A stretch of DNA of 64,000 nucleotides, taken from assembly GCA_048938105.1 (NCBI GenBank), contig JBHLMN010000001.1:224001-288000 (forward strand), written 5' to 3'. Positions 50,126 to 63,202 of the stretch are shown here, piece after piece (within the stretch, counting starts at the first letter, position 1; the number at the start of each line of letters is the position of its first letter). The notes beneath the pieces were generated by a model. The model saw only the letters and a list, made by a program, of their open reading frames with translations. It was not told the origin of the DNA and made no database searches. The position numbers were made by a program, and so were the translations under genes. The DNA is from Promethearchaeota archaeon (GTDB taxonomy: Archaea > Asgardarchaeota > Heimdallarchaeia > Hodarchaeales > Hodarchaeaceae).

Positions 50126-50253
50126 ATTCTAAACTGGTTCTAGGAACAACTTTCCAAGCTTTATTGATATTTAAATTGAATCGTAGAACAATCTACATAA
50201 GTTTATTAGTCCAATGTGGATCAAAACTATTACTAAAAGAAGAAGGTCATTTC

Positions 50254-51033
50254 ATGGAAGAAAAATCATCTGAGCTTATTTTTCGATCAGATCCCAGTAA
50301 AACTGTTTGTGAATGTACAACTGATATAAGACCTGAATGGATTGTCGTTGGTTTTCCTGGACATGGATTAGTTGGTAATATTGCCGCAAAACACATTATA
50401 AAAGAGCTTGATTTAGAGTGGATTGGATCAATCCGTTCTCCTCTCATCCCTCCTGTTTCCGTGTTTATGGATGGTATTCTATCTTATCCTTATAGAATTT
50501 ATGGTAGTAAGGAACGTAAAATAGCGATTCTAATCGGTGAATCTCCGTGTCCACCTCAAGCGTATTATTATCTTGCTAATGCTGTGTTAGAATGGGCAAT
50601 TAGTATTGGAACCAAACAAGTTATTTGTCTGGACGGATTTATAGCAGATCCTCGGGATGAAAAAACAAATAATGTATTCTTGGTAGCTGAACCTCAGGTC
50701 TACGAGGAAAATGGGAAATTGATACAATTTAATTTTCCCAAACCCCATACTGGTTTCATTTCTGGACTCTCTGGAGCAATTATGAATGAGGCGCTTTTAA
50801 CGCCTATTGAAGGCTTTTCACTCCTTGTTCCTGTATCCACTCAATATCCCGACCCAGGAGGCGCTGCTAAACTGATTGATGCAATTAATCAAATAAAAGG
50901 TCTTGAAGTTGACACTTCTAAGCTCCTTCAGGATGCAGAGAAAATTCAAAAATCTCTGATGGAATTATCAGAGCGAAACCGACAACTGACACAAGGAGAA
51001 GGAGTAGAACCTAGTAAAGGGCTTTATGTTTGA
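50254..51033 (+). CDS. PAC2-family proteasome assembly chaperone
   Basis: VGFPGHGLVGNIA, PYRIY, ISGLSG, YPDPGGAA, VDTSKLLQDAEKI, C-terminal HbYX motif LYV. Confidence 0.9.
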   Translation: MEEKSSELIFRSDPSKTVCECTTDIRPEWIVVGFPGHGLVGNIAAKHIIKELDLEWIGSIRSPLIPPVSVFMDGILSYPYRIYGSKERKIAILIGESPCPPQAYYYLANAVLEWAISIGTKQVICLDGFIADPRDEKTNNVFLVAEPQVYEENGKLIQFNFPKPHTGFISGLSGAIMNEALLTPIEGFSLLVPVSTQYPDPGGAAKLIDAINQIKGLEVDTSKLLQDAEKIQKSLMELSERNRQLTQGEGVEPSKGLYV

Positions 51034-51805: not shown

Positions 51806-52780
51806 TTAAGAAGGATTAGAAAACAACGTTAATCGTTCATGGCATATAGGACATTGATTGAAAACTTTTAACCATTCTAACAAATGGTTACGATGAAACG
51901 TATTCTGACAGATCGGACAAACAACATTATCAGTATCAGACTCTATAGAAGACCGACAAATTACGCAATACTTTTCAGATTGTTTAGATACATCCAGAGG
52001 GAATTTACTAATGGTCTCATCTTCATAACAATCCTCTACAGCTAAAATTAATTCACCAACCATATTGTGTTCCAGTCTCCCAACAATTTCTCCTTGAGAC
52101 ATTATATGCTCAAGAATTCGCTGAAGCAAATGATAATCAATAATTCGGTCTTGATAATGTTTACGAACCTTGAACATTAAATAATCAGACTCAATCTCGT
52201 TCCGTGGTCGAGAAATCTGTGTATTTATAGTTTTGAGAATAATTTGTCTTACATTTGTTAAAAAAACAACATTTTCCCGTTTTTTTCTGATTTCTTTTAG
52301 AAATTGATCCAATAACTTGATGATATCCTTTAGTTCTTTTTGGATGTATGGATTATTAATAAGAGGGGAACCTATTGAGATTTCTTTTTTAGTTAAATTT
52401 AATATCTCCTCCATTTCAATATACACATCATTTAATTGCATTAGGATGGTTTTTGCCGTACTTATGGTCTGTAATGGTTCGACTAATTCAATTTGAGCTA
52501 TCGTATGCTGTACAGTAAAACGACGGTTTACCAATTCCTCTTGATATCGGGAAATCTCTATAAAAAAGGGTTGACGTAATTTTCTATTTGCTATGTATGA
52601 AAAGAAAATACTTAGTATAAATCCAGCTAAAATGGCAAATTTGTTAACGTTAGACAATAATCCTGTTCCTAATGTACTTAAGATAAATGTAATTCCGACA
52701 AATATTACTATTAAGATAACTAAATTCCCAGTTGTTTTATTTCGAGACAAACGAGAGAGTTTTGCAGCATTAATAGCCAT
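51806..52780 (-). CDS. Membrane-anchored RING-finger protein (putative E3 ubiquitin ligase)
   Basis: Two N-terminal TM helices, a coiled region, then C-terminal CVIC...CPIC...FHRNHLLEWL....CPIC. Confidence 0.85.
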   Translation of the reverse strand: MAINAAKLSRLSRNKTTGNLVILIVIFVGITFILSTLGTGLLSNVNKFAILAGFILSIFFSYIANRKLRQPFFIEISRYQEELVNRRFTVQHTIAQIELVEPLQTISTAKTILMQLNDVYIEMEEILNLTKKEISIGSPLINNPYIQKELKDIIKLLDQFLKEIRKKRENVVFLTNVRQIILKTINTQISRPRNEIESDYLMFKVRKHYQDRIIDYHLLQRILEHIMSQGEIVGRLEHNMVGELILAVEDCYEDETISKFPLDVSKQSEKYCVICRSSIESDTDNVVCPICQNTFHRNHLLEWLKVFNQCPICHERLTLFSNPS

Positions 52781-54982: not shown

Positions 54983-55828
54983 TTATGTGGATTTTTCTCT
55001 TTGGGTTCGAATAATAAACGCGGTCATCTTTTTCATTTCTTTTTGCATCGAAGTAAGCTCTGCTTTTACTTTCGTTTCAACAATTGTGTTAATTTGCTGG
55101 TTTATTACCTCTGGAAGATCAGAAATCCTTCGAGTTAACTGTTCAGTTGTTTGTACCAATTTTTGAAGAGTTCCACCTTGCATGGCTAGACGTTCTGTCA
55201 CTGATGTCTTAAGCTCGTTGACAGATGACTCTAAGTAAATAGCGATGCGATCACGAAGTGAAGCCAATTCTACTTGGATTATTGCATTCACTCGATCCCT
55301 AAGTTCAGCAACAGTGGCTAATTGATCAGTCTGATTCTCGATTAGGGCGCTTAGGTTACTTACAACGTTATCAAGTTTATCTGAAATTACTACAAAATTG
55401 TTTATACTAGCTTCAAATCGACCTTTGGTTTCTTCAGTTGATGATTCCACCATAGTAGTAATATCATTGGAAAGCTTTCGCATACTTCCAACGACATCTT
55501 CTACATAGCTTACCTTAATGAATTTCAGATCATTCTTTGTTTCTTCAGCAGTTCTCACGAATGTTTTTTGAAAAGATCCGATGGATTCCTCAAGTTTAGA
55601 AATTATTGATGGAAGGTTTTGGATTGAAACCTGCAATTCAGAACTGATTTTTGAAGCGTCAAGTATGTCTTGGATAGCAGTTAAGCCGTATTTTATCTCT
55701 TCAACACTCTTTTGTACTGAATATTGTACATCTGATATTATATCTGAGGGATCTTTCATTATTTGAAGTGATTGCGTTAATTCCGAGACCTGTTGCCTTA
55801 TGCTTTTGATATCATCTTCTAGGCCCAT
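54983..55828 (-). CDS. All-helical coiled-coil/apolipoprotein-like protein
   Basis: Continuous amphipathic heptads, almost no Pro or aromatic residues; last gene of the tubulin-like cluster. Confidence 0.75.
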   Translation of the reverse strand: MGLEDDIKSIRQQVSELTQSLQIMKDPSDIISDVQYSVQKSVEEIKYGLTAIQDILDASKISSELQVSIQNLPSIISKLEESIGSFQKTFVRTAEETKNDLKFIKVSYVEDVVGSMRKLSNDITTMVESSTEETKGRFEASINNFVVISDKLDNVVSNLSALIENQTDQLATVAELRDRVNAIIQVELASLRDRIAIYLESSVNELKTSVTERLAMQGGTLQKLVQTTEQLTRRISDLPEVINQQINTIVETKVKAELTSMQKEMKKMTAFIIRTQREKST

Positions 55829-56001
55829 GCTATTTTCTCACATCTCATTCTATCAATATTAATGAGTAATAAACTCAAAGATTCTAAAAGATTTTCGAAA
55901 CTTCAAGACTCAAGCAGTAATAATATCAATCCTTTATTAAGGTTGATTAAAACCACCAAACAACTGACATTGAATCTTATAGCTAAATTCAAAGAACAAA
56001 A

Positions 56002-57081
56002 TTATTTCAAGCGTCTTAAAAAAGTCACAAACTTCTCGTTTTCTAACATTGTGTTATTTAATCTATCGATCATGATGATTGTTTCAGAGCAGATGAATTG
56101 TTTGAAATCATTCCCTGCGGCTTTCTGTAAATCTAGATAAATCTTTTTCACGACAGAAAATGAAACATTAGGTATTCTAGATTCTAGATCTCCCGATCCG
56201 AGGTTATAATTCTTTAAAATGCTGGAAGAAACACGAAGTGAGTCTTGTAGCTTTCGACTATCACCTGAGTACTCTGAAATACTCAGATAATAATTCTTCA
56301 CAACATCTTGGACTTGTTCCTGTTCCAAAGGTATAAGGCTTACTTCATCTTCACCAGGAAACAAACGACGGAGGTTTTGGAGTAAGCGTGCAGCTGGAGC
56401 TTCTCGCAAGAGCTTACTAATGAGATTTTTTAACTCAAAAGCTGGAAGTTGAATAATTTCGTACGGATTAGGGAGAGAAGATTCTGGTAACAACTCATAA
56501 CGATGAAGCTCTTTACATGCAGTGAAGTAGTAATTAGGAAAACCTAAATGAGATAAGTTCGAATAAGAAGAGAACATTTTTTCAATGGTATCAATGATTC
56601 CCCACCTGTCTTTAAATTCAATATTTCGTTGAAAAAGGCCTATTCTTACCTTTGGAATCACAGCTGGTTTTCTAAGAGCTTCAGTTAGTGTTGAAGAACT
56701 AGAAAGTTCACCTAGTAATGTAGTGACTTCTAAATTAATTTTCTCAATTTTTTCTAGTATTTCCAAACCTGATTCTGGTTGTAAAAGCATTTTAGAAAGG
56801 AATTCTTCAACCATGGTTAAAGTTGCAATTACATCATCATTTAAGACATCCTCAGTCCGTAATGCTGTAACTAGTGATGAGATGAGCTTAATGACTAAGA
56901 GATTCAATCCAATAAGGAGATTGATTTTTTCTCCCATATTACCTCGGGAACTCCAAAAATCAAATGAAGGATACTTCTGTTTATCCTTATCTGGTGTTAA
57001 AATTGATTGATCTTTGATAAATTTATTATGATTACGTGAATCTTGTGTAAATTCGAACTTTGGGCGATTTTTTTCGTCCAA
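56002..57081 (-). CDS. Hypothetical helical protein in the tubulin-like operon
   Basis: 359-aa ORF starting 14 bp after the tubulin-like gene. Confidence 0.7.
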   Translation of the reverse strand: MDEKNRPKFEFTQDSRNHNKFIKDQSILTPDKDKQKYPSFDFWSSRGNMGEKINLLIGLNLLVIKLISSLVTALRTEDVLNDDVIATLTMVEEFLSKMLLQPESGLEILEKIEKINLEVTTLLGELSSSSTLTEALRKPAVIPKVRIGLFQRNIEFKDRWGIIDTIEKMFSSYSNLSHLGFPNYYFTACKELHRYELLPESSLPNPYEIIQLPAFELKNLISKLLREAPAARLLQNLRRLFPGEDEVSLIPLEQEQVQDVVKNYYLSISEYSGDSRKLQDSLRVSSSILKNYNLGSGDLESRIPNVSFSVVKKIYLDLQKAAGNDFKQFICSETIIMIDRLNNTMLENEKFVTFLRRLK

Positions 57082-57095
57082 CTTGATCCAGCACC

Positions 57096-58460
57096 TTATT
57101 CTGGTTTGATGTAATATCCAAACAACTTCTCGAGATCATTTACCGCTGAATTCAGTTCTTCCTGTGTTGTCCCTTTTGATCGTTTAAACCAGTGCTGCTT
57201 TAATTCCGAGTCACCACTATGAAGTTGAATTAGTGCTTTGGCCTCCTCAAGAATATCATGCAACTCTGGTATTTTTGGTAAACCAAATAATAGAAGGAGA
57301 GAAGCTCGTGTGGTATCATCATCATAGGCGCAATAAGTTGGAGAAATGCTTGCACCTTTAGCTAAGAATGGTGCCAATGCTTTTTTCAAGTGAGGATCAT
57401 ATTCTACTCGTGCAATATTGCGGGGACCACTGAGTACGGAGAAAACAGATGAAGCAGCAGGGTTTGTTCCCATATCTGTTAGGCTGCAATTGGAAAGTGT
57501 GTATTCTACCGCAGTAGAAAGTTGAGACCCCATTCCACCAATTTCGGGGAAAACGGATAAATCATCAAACATTGCAGGAACAACAACACTATCCAATTTC
57601 AAAGCAAAATCACCAATATCGGTAGTAGGTAAAACTTCTTTTCCTACTTCAGGTACACCAGGGGACAGCATTTCCGCAATGGATTCTAAAGCTAAGGGGT
57701 TAACTAATTCAACAAAAGCTTCCTCTATTTGAGCTGGATAAGATGTTCCATCTTGACCTATAACAGTTGGAATACTGGAACTAACCTGCTCACTACTTAA
57801 ATCAGCTAAATCTTTCCCTATTTGTCTACTCAACAGGTCAACAGATTCCCCACGTTGCCAACTTAAAACTCTTTCAAGCATTGTTCTATTGGAAAGAAGA
57901 AGAATAAGATCAGGTCCCATATTTCCTTCTTCTAACTGGAGTCGTAGCAATCTTGATAATGCCCAGACACTGTTAACTGCTTCAGAAGACTGGTTGACGA
58001 AAGGTAAGACCCCAAATACATATATAAAGATTTTACGCTTTTCTTCTTCAGCAAAACGCTTTCTTAGTAATCTTATTAAAGCAGGAGTCCCACCGCATCC
58101 AGTACCGCCTCCAAAACTAGTAAAAATGCAAAAACCACTAATCCCCTCATACCCAAGGCCTTGTAATTGGTTAAGTACAATATCTTGCGAATTCATAACT
58201 GCTTCGTAACCTGCAGAAAATTTCCCACCTACTCCAATCTCTGCATCTGAATAAAGAAGAGTTCTTTTCTTGGAAATTGAATATTTCTTTCGTGCTTTCA
58301 ATAAATCTCCCCGATCAGTATTCATCACGAGATATTCTCTGATACGTTGAGGTAGCTCACCTTTTTTCGATTTAGCTAGGTAGCTACCAACTAAATTTGA
58401 TCCACATTCACCAATACCGATAGCAAATATCTCTGATTCTGGTTCTCCTTCGATTGACAT
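57096..58460 (-). CDS. Divergent tubulin/FtsZ/CetZ-superfamily GTPase
   Basis: IGIGECGSNL (T1), MNTD (T2), GVGG (T3), FTSFGGGTGCG (T4), VLPF...EAVNS (T5), LLSN (T6), TDIGDF (T7). Confidence 0.92.
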   Translation of the reverse strand: MSIEGEPESEIFAIGIGECGSNLVGSYLAKSKKGELPQRIREYLVMNTDRGDLLKARKKYSISKKRTLLYSDAEIGVGGKFSAGYEAVMNSQDIVLNQLQGLGYEGISGFCIFTSFGGGTGCGGTPALIRLLRKRFAEEEKRKIFIYVFGVLPFVNQSSEAVNSVWALSRLLRLQLEEGNMGPDLILLLSNRTMLERVLSWQRGESVDLLSRQIGKDLADLSSEQVSSSIPTVIGQDGTSYPAQIEEAFVELVNPLALESIAEMLSPGVPEVGKEVLPTTDIGDFALKLDSVVVPAMFDDLSVFPEIGGMGSQLSTAVEYTLSNCSLTDMGTNPAASSVFSVLSGPRNIARVEYDPHLKKALAPFLAKGASISPTYCAYDDDTTRASLLLLFGLPKIPELHDILEEAKALIQLHSGDSELKQHWFKRSKGTTQEELNSAVNDLEKLFGYYIKPE

Positions 58461-58506
58461 TTTTTCACACTCAAATTTGTATTATTTCTTTGAAAGTCGT
58501 ATTCTA

Positions 58507-61500
58507 CTACAGTTTGTTACCAGATTTAATTTCAATAAGTAATTTCATGACAAGAGCTAAATAAGAACGGATTGCTTTATTATGAGGATACGTTTCTTTG
58601 ATTTTCTTAGAAATTTCTTTATACTGTCGTGAGTTCTCCTCTTTACTCTCCGTCGGGGAATATCGAGGACGGAACATGCGTATAGCACGATGCCAATGGT
58701 TTAACTGCACAGAAACTTTCTTCCACTCATTTCTTTGCTCATCTATTTGTGGCAATAATTCTAAAATATATCTGAGATCATGAGAGGCTAAAAATTCCTC
58801 GCGGGCTTTGACTAATTTAGATAAAGGAAAAATACTATCAGATGCTTCCTTTGTATATCTCTTAAAGACTTCTTGAATATTAGAATAATATTCTAAACTC
58901 CCTAATCCAGTTTGTAGTGCAACATTTCGATCTCTTTCAATCTTCTTCATGATTTCGATAACAGATCCTCGTACAGATACCAGTTTGAGTATAGCTTGTG
59001 TTAATCGACTGACATGATTTGTTGTAGCAATTGCTTGAAATTGACTTAAATAGGCTAAATCAACCCGTTCATCTTGACGTAGGTCAATTTCATAATGAAT
59101 GAACAAATACTCAACTGCATCTTGTATTTCCGTGATATAACGTTTTCCCATGGATCTAATTTCACTACAAGCCTTTGCATCAGTCTGTAAGCGATCAATT
59201 TCTACAAAAACATCAGTTATTTCCCGTAATTGAACATCTTCTTGGTTTTTAACTATTACCTGGCTGAAAGTTTCAATATATCCCCCCACATACTCGATGA
59301 TATTGATCCCGACTTCTTTTAGATCATTAACATTTTTCAGGACGGTTCGTGATTCTTTTACACCTTGAGCTAGCAGAATTGCTACGATTTCTGTGTCATA
59401 TAAGAAGATAAGTTGTCGTAATTTATGTGCTAATCGCTCATGAGATACTTCATCAGCTTCAAAATCAGCAATTTTCCTTTCTGCCGCAAAAACAGTACCA
59501 TCGACAGGTGTGATTTCATTTATCCGTGGTAAACTTACTCTTAACCAATTATAGAGGTTTTGATGAAGTGTAGCTAAAGAATCCTTAGCCATTTGTAGGC
59601 TTTCTAAACTATAACTCTCAAAAACATTGACTAATCTCACAATATCTTTATGGGTTTTGATTTCAGCCATTTTTTCATTCATAAGTTCCAATGTTTCTGC
59701 AAAAAACATTGCATATTGACTAGGAAGCTTGGAATAATCTTGTATATGAGAGGAAATCTCCCGTTCCATATGTTCAGCTAGTGTTGAAGCTTTTCGTTCA
59801 ATAAATGCTCTTAATTGCCAAAATTCCGTCAGAGCTTCAGAATAATCAAGGTCATCAATTTCTCTATCAGTTGAATAGATTAAACTGCTTTTCCGAGATT
59901 TTAATAAGCGAAACAGTCTTTTATCGACTCCCTCAAGATTTGTTATCTGTTTTTTTAATTCGATAATTATTTCGTTCTTATTTTCTTCAATCGTTTCCAG
60001 GAAAGAAATATATTCTTTAATTACATCCCCGATATTTCCTGATTCAGAGTGTTCATCAATAGAACTCACTATTTGATTACGTTTTTCCCGTAGATCAAAC
60101 CGTGTCTCTATAGGAATCAATGGAAATGGAATCGACTTTAAATTTTCACGGATCCGCGAAGATATCTTGTACTTCCACACTTGAATCTTTTCATACTCAT
60201 CCAGAAGTTCTTGAATACTCTTTTGAGCTGCTGCGCTAGCTTCATCTCGAAATGCTTTCAAATCCTCAACTTCAAGAATAGGAACATGAGCTTTTAATTT
60301 AGGAGGAATTGTTTCTAGATTTGTGAGCTGATTGTAGATTGGATGTATTTCATTATCCATTCTGTTCCAGAGTTCAGTTTTAATATTGGTATTAAGGTGA
60401 TGCAGGACTTCAATTTCATGAACTAAGTCTCGAATATCTATCTCTTCTGCAATTTTTTGTTTCCTTTGATACTCAATTTGATCTTTCAGTTCTTCTGATA
60501 AAATATTCCGCAAGCTTTCACGAGAATCATATAGATTCAGCAAATTTTGTCTAAGATTTTGTTGAGCAGGTCTTGAAAAGTAAGCAACCAGACGGGTCTC
60601 CCAATCCTTTATTTCTCGGGCTTTATTACTTAATTCACTCGGAGTTAATATTTCAAAATCGCGAATGGTTGGTATTTGAGGCCCCTCAACTAAATTTATC
60701 ACTTCTTGGATGTGAGGATTCTCTAATAGTCTGAAAAAATAATTTTGACACTCTTCAGCTAAAGTTGATTTTAATTCATGATAACTTTTCGCTAGTTCTA
60801 CCCATTCTTGAAGATCTTTTCCTTTTGCTGCGTCTTTCTCAAGTTTTCGTACATCTTTAGTAAAATCAGGAGGAACTGGTATCTTCATTGCACGAATAGC
60901 TTTAGAAGCATTAATCAATTCTGATGTACTGATCATTTTCTTTGTCGTAATAATCTGCTGTTGGCGCCAAGAACGAATTTTCTCAATGTCTTGAATGATG
61001 GTAGGTATACTCGTAGAAGAAACATCAGTTTCTGGAACTGGTGAAAAAGAAGATTCCAATCCTTCTCTCCCTGTTATCTGTAGAATCCGTCCGATTTGAT
61101 CTTCTGTTTCGGTTTTTAATGAAATTTCATATGTTCTAAGTGCATTAATGAACTCATTACTAAGTGAGTTTAACCTCTTTTCCAATCCAATAAGGGTTTC
61201 AACTGAAGTTGTTTTCTCTGTACTACTTTGAATATCTTGTATTTCCTCTTTCAAAGCATCTATTTTTGCCCAAAGATCCAAACCAATTGAAGCAACCGTA
61301 TCAATATGTTGTTGTAATTCAGAAGACATTTGAATTATTGCAAGTTGAATTTTACCTTCTGTACCTTTTCTGCGTTGTTTTAAATACGCATTTTCAGCTT
61401 CTAACTGATTATAAACTTCTAGTAAATCAGGAATAGCCATAACATGAATACTAGTTTTAGTTGTCTGATTTGTGATTCGTATCTTTTCTTCATCAAAATT

Positions 61501-62019
61501 AACAAATTTTCCATAGAGCTCAATAATCTCACGATTAAATAATAGTATAGAAACGTTTTTTCCTCGTAAAACCTCAGATATCTGATTATACGTTCTAAGC
61601 ACTTTTGAACTAAATTTCACGATTTCATTGACATTAAAACTGGGAATTTGAAGTTTGCGAATAGTTTCTGTCTCTTGAGGGATAAATTTGGCAATTTCCT
61701 TGATGTTATTTGCCAGGTCAAAGTAAATCTTACGAAATCCAACTAAAAGGGTGTTTAACAAATCCTCAGAGAGCTTACTAAATTTCTCTTTGTTTTGAGT
61801 AAGAGCCTTTTTCATTCCCCTTTTTTTGAAGAATCCCGCTTTAGGTAAGTCTTTTTCTAGTTTTTCAACTTCTATCACTATTTTTTGTGCTTCGTTCAAA
61901 GTGGAGATAACTTGCACTGTTGGGTCAATTGATCGTAATTCAGTCACTAAATCTCGTATCTTATGAAGAACTTCCTTTGAAAGGAGTTCTCCTTCTTCTG
62001 GTATCATATTGGCTAGCAT
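58507..62019 (-). CDS. 1170-aa alpha-helical/coiled-coil protein
   Basis: E/K/L/I-rich helical segments broken by short Pro linkers; no Walker motifs or TM seen; ends 46 bp before the tubulin-like gene. Confidence 0.8.
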   Translation of the reverse strand: MLANMIPEEGELLSKEVLHKIRDLVTELRSIDPTVQVISTLNEAQKIVIEVEKLEKDLPKAGFFKKRGMKKALTQNKEKFSKLSEDLLNTLLVGFRKIYFDLANNIKEIAKFIPQETETIRKLQIPSFNVNEIVKFSSKVLRTYNQISEVLRGKNVSILLFNREIIELYGKFVNFDEEKIRITNQTTKTSIHVMAIPDLLEVYNQLEAENAYLKQRRKGTEGKIQLAIIQMSSELQQHIDTVASIGLDLWAKIDALKEEIQDIQSSTEKTTSVETLIGLEKRLNSLSNEFINALRTYEISLKTETEDQIGRILQITGREGLESSFSPVPETDVSSTSIPTIIQDIEKIRSWRQQQIITTKKMISTSELINASKAIRAMKIPVPPDFTKDVRKLEKDAAKGKDLQEWVELAKSYHELKSTLAEECQNYFFRLLENPHIQEVINLVEGPQIPTIRDFEILTPSELSNKAREIKDWETRLVAYFSRPAQQNLRQNLLNLYDSRESLRNILSEELKDQIEYQRKQKIAEEIDIRDLVHEIEVLHHLNTNIKTELWNRMDNEIHPIYNQLTNLETIPPKLKAHVPILEVEDLKAFRDEASAAAQKSIQELLDEYEKIQVWKYKISSRIRENLKSIPFPLIPIETRFDLREKRNQIVSSIDEHSESGNIGDVIKEYISFLETIEENKNEIIIELKKQITNLEGVDKRLFRLLKSRKSSLIYSTDREIDDLDYSEALTEFWQLRAFIERKASTLAEHMEREISSHIQDYSKLPSQYAMFFAETLELMNEKMAEIKTHKDIVRLVNVFESYSLESLQMAKDSLATLHQNLYNWLRVSLPRINEITPVDGTVFAAERKIADFEADEVSHERLAHKLRQLIFLYDTEIVAILLAQGVKESRTVLKNVNDLKEVGINIIEYVGGYIETFSQVIVKNQEDVQLREITDVFVEIDRLQTDAKACSEIRSMGKRYITEIQDAVEYLFIHYEIDLRQDERVDLAYLSQFQAIATTNHVSRLTQAILKLVSVRGSVIEIMKKIERDRNVALQTGLGSLEYYSNIQEVFKRYTKEASDSIFPLSKLVKAREEFLASHDLRYILELLPQIDEQRNEWKKVSVQLNHWHRAIRMFRPRYSPTESKEENSRQYKEISKKIKETYPHNKAIRSYLALVMKLLIEIKSGNKL

Positions 62020-62189
62020 CCTACGTCATTGACACTATAATTTTCCTCTTTTTTAAATTAATCAAATTATAGTGTGCATCGTACGTCATTGAGGTGTAGT
62101 CTTTCTTCGGTACGACTTAAGGAGAGGGTTCTTTATATGTTTCAGTATTATACACACACTATAATTTTCCTCTTTTTTAAATTAATCAA
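62016..62189. repeat. Nested direct and inverted repeats upstream of the tubulin-like operon
   Basis: Exact 34-bp repeat ACACTATAATTTTCCTCTTTTTTAAATTAATCAA at 62032-62065 and 62156-62189. GCATC(C/G)TACGTCATTG at 62016-62031 and 62076-62091. 11-bp inverted repeat ACACTATAATT/AATTATAGTGT bounding 62032-62075. Confidence 0.9.
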
Positions 62190-62392
62190 TTAATTAAATA
62201 CTTTGTAGACCAAAAGAGCCTTTTTTTTCAATATCATTGGCTAAAACTTAGTGAAAGTCAAGCTAATTTATATAAATAAAGATAGAATTAATGAAAATAT
62301 GAAAAAAAAATACAAGTAATTATTTATAAGAAGGAAAAATAATTATTTTATAATAAGGCCAAATTATCTATTCATATCTGAAGGTTAGATGG

Positions 62393-63202
62393 TTGCTGAA
62401 CGCGTTGTTAATCTCAATAGGAAATGAGTTAGTTTCAGGGAAAACTATCAACACAAATGCAAATTATCTCGCGAAAAATCTCACAAATTTGGGTTTTATC
62501 GTAAAGAAAATCATTACTATTCCTGATGATCCAGAAATTGTACCAAATGAGATTTCACATGCTCTATCATCATGTGATTACCGACTCATTCTTATAACAG
62601 GAGGTTTAGGTCCGACTTGGGATGACTCAACAGCGCTTTTTCTTGCAAAAGCATTAGATGTTGCCACAGAACTTAACCCTGAAGCATTATCAATAGTTAC
62701 ACAGCGATATAAGACTTTATTTAATAATAAACTAGTAGAAACACCTGAAATTACTTCCAGTCGAGAAAAAATGGCTATTTTGCCAGAAGGCGCGGAATCT
62801 ATCAATAATCCAGTCGGAACCGCTCCTGGCATTTTTTTTAACCATATGGACTCAAATACATGGATTTTTTGTCTTCCTGGAGTACCCCGTGAAATGAAAG
62901 ATATGTATCTTTTAATTGAGTCGAAAATTATGGCTTTAATAAAAGCGGAGCATATAAGTTATTTTGAAACAGAATTTACATCATCGTTCACAGATGAATC
63001 TTTACTCGCCCCATTTTTAGCAAAAGTGCGTCAAAAGTATGATGTATGGATTAAATCACTCCCTGAAGCTTATCAAGAGGAAAAAAATATTCATTTAATC
63101 ATTTCAAAATCGGCAGATTCGGAAAAAAAAGCGAAGAAAGAAGTTCTAGAAGCAAAAGCATACCTCCATAAATTAATAGATTTTTCACGTAAAACAAAGT
63201 GA
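62393..63202 (+). CDS. cinA: Competence/damage-inducible protein A-like (MoCF-binding domain)
   Basis: SIGNELVSGKTINTNA, IPDD, TGGLGPTWDD, NPVGTAPG, LPGVPREM. Confidence 0.9.
   Translation: MLNALLISIGNELVSGKTINTNANYLAKNLTNLGFIVKKIITIPDDPEIVPNEISHALSSCDYRLILITGGLGPTWDDSTALFLAKALDVATELNPEALSIVTQRYKTLFNNKLVETPEITSSREKMAILPEGAESINNPVGTAPGIFFNHMDSNTWIFCLPGVPREMKDMYLLIESKIMALIKAEHISYFETEFTSSFTDESLLAPFLAKVRQKYDVWIKSLPEAYQEEKNIHLIISKSADSEKKAKKEVLEAKAYLHKLIDFSRKTK

Follow-up and report, generated by a model that had tools for sequence, protein, structure and literature searches.

A tubulin-superfamily gene with two conserved partner genes in Asgard archaea: a candidate cytoskeletal module

The cassette and its four proteins

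The window analysed here is a 64,000-nucleotide stretch of an Asgard archaeal genome (assembly GCA_048938105.1, contig JBHLMN010000001.1, positions 224,001 to 288,000), and its minus strand carries a cassette of consecutive genes built around a divergent relative of tubulin. Along that strand the first core gene is BIG (58507..62019), which encodes an all-helical protein of 1170 amino acids (aa; 136 kDa) with internal repeats. It is followed by TUB (57096..58460), for a 454-aa GTPase assigned to the tubulin/FtsZ superfamily and, within it, to the Asg.Tub group, and by the third core gene, MID (56002..57081), for a 359-aa protein of no known family. Downstream of this core lies CC (54983..55828), a genus-restricted accessory gene for a 281-aa protein of coiled-coil type. 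An earlier note on this DNA, made from the sequence alone, had described four co-oriented genes of these lengths in an Asgard archaeon, with gaps of 46, 14 and about 170 bp. The open reading frames (ORFs) are as it stated, the gaps measure 46, 14 and 173 bp, and the locus is of Hodarchaeales type. BIG, TUB and CC start with ATG and MID with TTG; the latter start is supported because the N-terminus of MID aligns with those of ATG-started orthologues.

TUB scores 64.9 bits against the Pfam family Tubulin (PF00091; curated cut-off 33 bits) over residues 10-171, and we accordingly classify it, by homology, as a GTPase of the tubulin/FtsZ superfamily and, as the earlier note had it, a divergent one. 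Against the ftsZ equivalog TIGR00065 it reaches 32.1 bits, far under the cut-off of 295.2 bits, and neither Tubulin_C (PF03953) nor FtsZ_C gives a match to TUB at E up to 1. The TUB family profile was also compared with solved chains. The best were CetZ 4b46 (7e-12), 3zid (1.5e-8) and 4b45 (5e-7), and OdinTubulin, BtubA, alpha-tubulin and AtubA came next with E values of 1e-5 to 1e-4; in none of them does the alignment extend beyond the N-terminal domain (about positions 12-200).

For motif comparison 17 diverse members of the TUB family were aligned. The T1 loop GxGExG (G15, G17, E18, G20), the T4 signature GGGTGCGG (G117-G124) and a T-T-D-x-x-D element (D281, D284) are each invariant in 17/17. 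The T4 signature answers to the GGGTG(S/T)G of the superfamily, with Cys at the Ser/Thr position, and the T-T-D-x-x-D element, which follows an insertion of about 40 aa ahead of the T7 region, fits the T7 pattern NxDxx(D/E) of FtsZ and tubulin. Because the T1, T4 and T7-like motifs are invariant, TUB may be read as an intact polymerisation-activated GTPase.

The earlier note had taken this tubulin-like family to be new, and in this respect it has to be corrected. A CetZ-like group of Asgardarchaeota, comprising four sequences, was named Asg.Tub by Santana-Molina, del Saz-Navarro and Devos (2023, Front Microbiol; PMC9871819). Its placement between CetZ and tubulins was unstable and outside canonical CetZ, its C-terminal region matched no other family and no CetZ_C hidden Markov model, and the authors had already seen that the surrounding genes were unknown and mostly coiled-coil. 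The group was treated there as sparse; a function was not given and partners were not defined. We compared supplement file 35 of that paper by eye with TUB residues ~220-454 and found that the C-terminal half of TUB agrees almost letter for letter with the published Asg.Tub alignment (LC-3, B3-JM-08, Thor SMTZ1-83 and Thor AB-25); on this match we place TUB in the published but uncharacterised Asg.Tub group. In the same comparison the B3-JM-08 member is nearly identical to TUB. B3_Heim is also locus L015 of our synteny survey, where it shows 83% identity. A literature search found no paper beyond PMC9871819 that uses the name Asg.Tub or treats the family.

TUB and BIG are each present as a single copy in the window's genome, which is 99% complete. 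Canonical FtsZ is encoded separately from TUB on contig C9, and Tubulin_C did not turn up when all six frames of the same genome were searched. As an aside, a six-frame PF00091 search of this genome shows the gene at C9:86175-86651 to be its sole FtsZ-type gene besides TUB; many archaea carry both FtsZ1 and FtsZ2.

The AlphaFold2 (AF2) model of BIG consists of helices only (mean predicted local distance difference test, pLDDT, 81.4). Its predicted template modelling score of 0.39 is what an elongated chain of several domains would be expected to give. Self-comparison with hhalign gave shifted matches at 96-97% probability, and BIG is therefore built of repeated modules. Homologues are found by BLASTP in a large Thor protein (897 aa, 2e-20) and in a Heimdall protein (1139 aa, 3e-46); the Thor orthologues are about 270 aa shorter, with residues ~520-730 missing, and the most conserved residues (W1099, W1109, H1110, Y1153, L1154) all lie in the last 100. 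Searches of Pfam, NCBIfam and PADLOC assign BIG to no family. Its profile matched nothing below E 0.006 among PDB sequences, where no GCP chain appeared, and its model resembles no known fold above the background for helical proteins, the only resemblance, weak and non-significant, being to large helical scaffold proteins. The one hit to GCP_C_terminal (E 0.0032 in 1/34 orthologues) is at chance level for 34 scans and was discarded; GCP is also missing from the BIG fold lists, although a 1170-residue model tests single domains poorly.

MID is modelled well by AF2 at residues 145-359 (pLDDT >90) and poorly in its N-terminal helical part. The model is helical except for three short strands and shows no known fold above the background for helical proteins. 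MID belongs to no Pfam or NCBIfam family, its profile matched nothing below E 0.006 among PDB sequences, and a feature search of the ESM Atlas returned nothing usable for it. Homology to 355-359-aa Thor proteins is found by BLASTP (3e-20 and 1e-21), and an EAP-x-ARL motif is invariant across the family. The family is narrow: when 1.84 billion representative proteins were searched exhaustively with its profile, only 54 clusters matched, all of them MID-sized or fragments. One relative of 602 aa has an N-terminal extension that is unrelated. A membrane anchor was considered for the N-terminal helix, whose Kyte-Doolittle value is 2.1 here; in the Thor orthologues it is lower (1.2-1.7), and a transmembrane anchor is therefore not a feature of the MID family.

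CC shows weak coiled-coil or apolipoprotein-type matches only, below the Pfam and NCBIfam cut-offs, together with weak coiled-coil matches to the PADLOC models ZorA, LmuB and LeoA (E 4e-5 to 4e-3) and generic coiled-coil neighbours in the ESM Atlas feature search. Its central and C-terminal part is strikingly conserved.

On the partners as a set the earlier note is largely borne out. It had seen no enzyme motif in them, and none of the three reaches a curated Pfam or NCBIfam cut-off or matches an enzyme family. It had called them alpha-helical, which agrees with the BIG and MID models and the coiled-coil-type matches of CC. It had named a match to known unrelated families, such as SMC-like or defence proteins, as the alternative, and Pfam, NCBIfam, PDB and PADLOC gave no match to such a family or defence system. 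In contrast, the scaffold, nucleator, microtubule-associated protein, GCP or spectrin relationship that it proposed or suggested checking receives no support from fold or sequence comparison.

Gene order, distribution and surroundings

The synteny survey used one genome per species and yielded 107 relatives, of which 80 loci were retrieved; 85 loci were searched with the four window proteins after ORF calling in all of them. BIG homologues were detected in 77/85 loci and MID homologues in 76/85. In every case found the order is BIG-TUB-MID(-CC) on the same strand, with core gaps of about 0-50 bp, and the lineages that carry the cassette comprise Hodarchaeales, Thorarchaeota and Borr-, Sif- and LC-3-like archaea. 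BIG stands directly upstream of TUB in every related locus with room except L014, and MID directly downstream of TUB in every locus with room outside type B, the divergent paralogue of the Hodarchaeales locus described below. Loci lacking a BIG match are contig ends, two assembly gaps (L008 and L053, where tblastn still finds the C-terminal part) and the real exception L014; those lacking MID are two contig ends and seven rows of type B, two of which (L003 and L066) are the same place. The arrangement is not due to chance, because it recurs in dozens of species.

CC behaves differently. It was found in 15/85 loci, always just downstream of MID, and in 19/399 Asgard genomes, all of a single GTDB genus, the window's own. 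Because it is confined to one genus and sits behind a 173-bp AT-rich spacer, CC is an add-on outside the conserved three-gene core. Of the four-gene system proposed earlier, and of the synteny expected for it, what stands is thus BIG-TUB-MID, whose order and shared strand hold in several Asgard classes; the fourth gene does not share in it.

Phyletic counts were taken in the 399 Asgard genomes and tallied per family. TUB is present in 121/399 and MID in 122/399, and the MID matches adjoin the TUB matches. Both genes occur in 74/89 genomes of the Thor-size group, in 5/5 of family f28 and in 4/4 of family f11; family f12 has TUB in 15/19 and MID in 16/19, and the window's own family has TUB in 17/20 and MID in 18/20. 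Neither gene occurs in the two largest of the other families (0/135, Lokiarchaeales-size, and 0/31). True tubulins with Tubulin_C were detected in 8/399 genomes, which belong to four families, none of them with Asg.Tub. The cassette and true tubulins do not overlap in this sample, and, FtsZ aside, no tubulin-superfamily system is commoner in the phylum than the cassette, with its 121 genomes.

In a quick, unrooted maximum-likelihood tree the TUB sequences of Hodarchaeales type A, Hodarchaeales type B, Sif/Borr and Thor form separate clades with good support, types A and B being the two Hodarchaeales versions of the TUB locus. Because the tree follows the major lineages, it is consistent with mainly vertical descent of TUB within them. 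Between Hodarchaeales and Thor TUB retains 55-57% identity, BIG and MID about 18-26%; at 80% identity the sequences fall into 7 clusters for TUB, 34 for BIG and 39 for MID. A slow TUB with fast partners would be the usual picture for a polymer with its adaptors.

Type B was observed in other Hodarchaeales genomes, not in that of the window, at L063, L066 (= L003), L067, L074, L077 and L079. Its order is a 311-aa unknown protein, BIG (~1140 aa) and TUB (441-448 aa), with no MID. A Gtr1/RagA-Arf-like GTPase of ~735 aa flanks type B at 5/6 distinct places, those with room (all but L074), even if the order is rearranged, and another of ~300 aa also does so at four of those five. No Rag-like gene is consistently near type-A or Thor cassettes. 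The 311-aa protein was considered as an analogue of MID and rejected, since hhalign finds no similarity between the two.

Individual loci depart from the common layout in other ways. In B3_Heim BIG and TUB are separated by an inserted 1202-aa ORF that matches no Pfam family (L015:5166-8774), and in a related genome two unknown ORFs (563 and 773 aa) occupy the BIG position (L014:4520-8646), with no BIG within 9 kb. Among loci examined by gene table, a divergent WD40 beta-propeller protein of ~630-650 aa lies just upstream of BIG in Thor (L001/L002:3185-5065, L004:3080-5050).

In the window, the spacing of the cassette genes suggests that they are co-transcribed. The minus strand showed no terminator-like site within the cassette, and the AT-rich spacer between MID and CC (55829..56001) may carry a separate CC promoter. 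The presumed promoter region of the cassette is the 373-bp AT-rich divergent intergenic region upstream of BIG (62020..62392). Just upstream of the BIG start codon this region contains an exact 34-bp direct duplication (62033-62066 and 62156-62189, ~120 bp apart). On the BIG side the flank consists of a MoCF-type gene on the other strand (62393-63202) and a CDC48, and on the CC side of an unknown gene, an NTP-transferase and a RING-finger protein. These flanking genes are unrelated to the cassette, and the unit is therefore bounded as the earlier note described. Two downstream neighbours, likewise unrelated to it, are of eukaryote-signature type: a protein with a C-terminal RING-type zinc finger (51806-52780) and a PAC2-family, proteasome assembly chaperone-like protein (50164-51033). 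A PADLOC scan revealed no defence or mobile-element signal in the cassette, its defence models matching none of BIG, TUB and MID.

A putative filament module and competing explanations

Superfamily homology of TUB, intact motifs, tight linkage together with co-occurrence, and partners without known homologues are established by the above. Gene linkage and the intact polymerisation-type motifs point to a dedicated filament system, and we regard it as fairly probable that BIG, TUB and MID are three parts of one Asgard-specific tubulin-superfamily module. In such a module TUB would bind GTP and assemble head-to-tail into protofilaments, its T7-type loop completing the GTPase site of the next subunit. 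BIG, an extended rod with helical bundles as its repeating units, would attach along the filaments or between them and so scaffold or stabilise them. The compact C-terminal domain of MID would serve as an adaptor or regulator, possibly joining the polymer to another structure, and CC would be a later accessory specific to this Hodarchaeales genus.

Several points weigh against this proposal. Polymerisation, physical binding and the role of each partner are what we infer, and the fold comparisons of the BIG and MID models reveal no recognisable filament-binding fold. The T7 assignment comes from motif reading only, and the C-terminal half of TUB has no significant alignment to any solved chain. 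Type B has BIG and TUB but lacks MID, so not every member strictly needs MID. Also, no fused TUB-partner protein was found among the longer proteins, which is weak evidence. A complex prediction for TUB and MID, both given as alignments, returned 0.00 in two runs, a result that speaks neither for nor against binding.

The alternative that survives best is that TUB is a regulatory GTPase switch which forms no filaments and acts with BIG and MID as a discrete complex in membrane trafficking or signalling. The Gtr1/RagA-Arf-like GTPases that flank type-B BIG-TUB loci fit this idea, as does the faint likeness of BIG to large helical scaffold proteins. Yet the T7-type acidic residues, which serve only in the polymer interface, are invariant, and Rag-like genes keep no consistent company with type-A or Thor cassettes. 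The characterised close relatives of TUB (CetZ, tubulins and FtsZ) moreover all polymerise, and we consider a switch of this kind unlikely.

Alternatively, TUB could form filaments that act in cell shape or division much as CetZ does, and BIG and MID would then only be co-transcribed with it, not bound to it. CetZ is indeed the closest solved relative, CetZ genes normally lack dedicated partners (PMC9871819), and no interface was obtained from the TUB and MID prediction, which itself gave no verdict. Against this, the partners are strictly adjacent to TUB and share a near-identical phyletic pattern with it across several Asgard classes, although each partner is only ~20% identical between these classes, which is hard to explain without functional coupling and makes passive co-transcription quite improbable. 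A DNA segregation system of TubZRC or PhuZ type on a mobile element would likewise group three genes around a tubulin-like GTPase, as TubZ-TubR-TubY does, but is very improbable because BIG, MID and CC contain no helix-turn-helix or other DNA-binding family (Pfam, NCBIfam) and the cassette is chromosomal, single-copy, set among housekeeping genes and vertically inherited along the lineage tree, with no PADLOC match for BIG, TUB or MID.

We thus favour the three-part filament module. A broader version of it is more tentative, and we put it forward as possible only: with BIG and MID, an archaeal polymer of the tubulin superfamily would for the first time have partners dedicated to binding its filaments, the whole would be an Asgard-specific cytoskeletal structure that occurs much more widely across the phylum than true tubulins do, and its Hodarchaeales duplicate would be wired to Rag/Arf-type GTPases. 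On this version archaea of the lineage nearest to eukaryotes would have invented a system of filament, scaffold and adaptor independently.

Studies of the Asgard cytoskeleton have dealt mainly with actin, FtsZ and true tubulins, which are rare, and the Hodarchaeales, in which the cassette occurs, are on one proposal the archaea nearest to eukaryotes. The cassette makes a good candidate for a cytoskeletal module not yet described in archaea and adds two protein families, BIG and MID, without detectable relatives or known fold. New in this study are the phylum-wide co-occurrence counts, the genus restriction of CC, the internal repeats of BIG, the narrow MID family, the lack of known folds in the partners, the non-overlap with true tubulins and the type-B paralogue beside Rag-like GTPases. 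Should the three proteins prove to assemble with one another, they would constitute an archaeal filament system of a new type, equipped with a scaffold and an adaptor of its own. The absence of the cassette from the Lokiarchaeales-size family may explain why cultured Loki strains never revealed it; two Hodarchaeales strains, HC1 and SC1, have now been cultured (bioRxiv 10.1101/2025.02.26.640444).

Comparison with known systems

Prosthecobacter mini-microtubules offer a parallel in gene layout, since BtubA/BtubB and BtubC, like the cassette, place tubulin-superfamily genes beside an all-helical repeat protein. BtubC binds and stabilises the Btub filament. It belongs to the TPR proteins, but neither TPR nor any other known repeat family was recognised in BIG, and BtubAB are true tubulins with Tubulin_C, which TUB lacks.

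The archaeal cell-shape protein CetZ (4b46, 3zid, 4b45) is similar to TUB in the GTPase loops T1 to T5. Only its N-terminal domain aligns with TUB, over about positions 12-170, the ~40-aa insertion before T7 is TUB's own, and CetZ, unlike TUB, has no conserved partner genes. TubZ-TubR-TubY and PhuZ resemble the cassette in that a tubulin-like GTPase is encoded in a small operon with dedicated, fast-evolving partners; they are plasmid- or phage-borne and employ a DNA-binding adaptor, whereas the cassette is chromosomal and vertically inherited and contains no DNA-binding domain.

OdinTubulin and AtubAB (PMC13394414) belong to the same superfamily and phylum as TUB and are weak sequence relatives of it, at the E values given above. 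They carry Tubulin_C, and such tubulins are confined to the eight Asgard genomes counted here. Closest of all is Asg.Tub as described in PMC9871819, which is the same family as TUB and was likewise seen beside unknown coiled-coil neighbours. It comprised four sequences in that study; here it extends to 121/399 Asgard genomes and is accompanied by the partner families BIG and MID.

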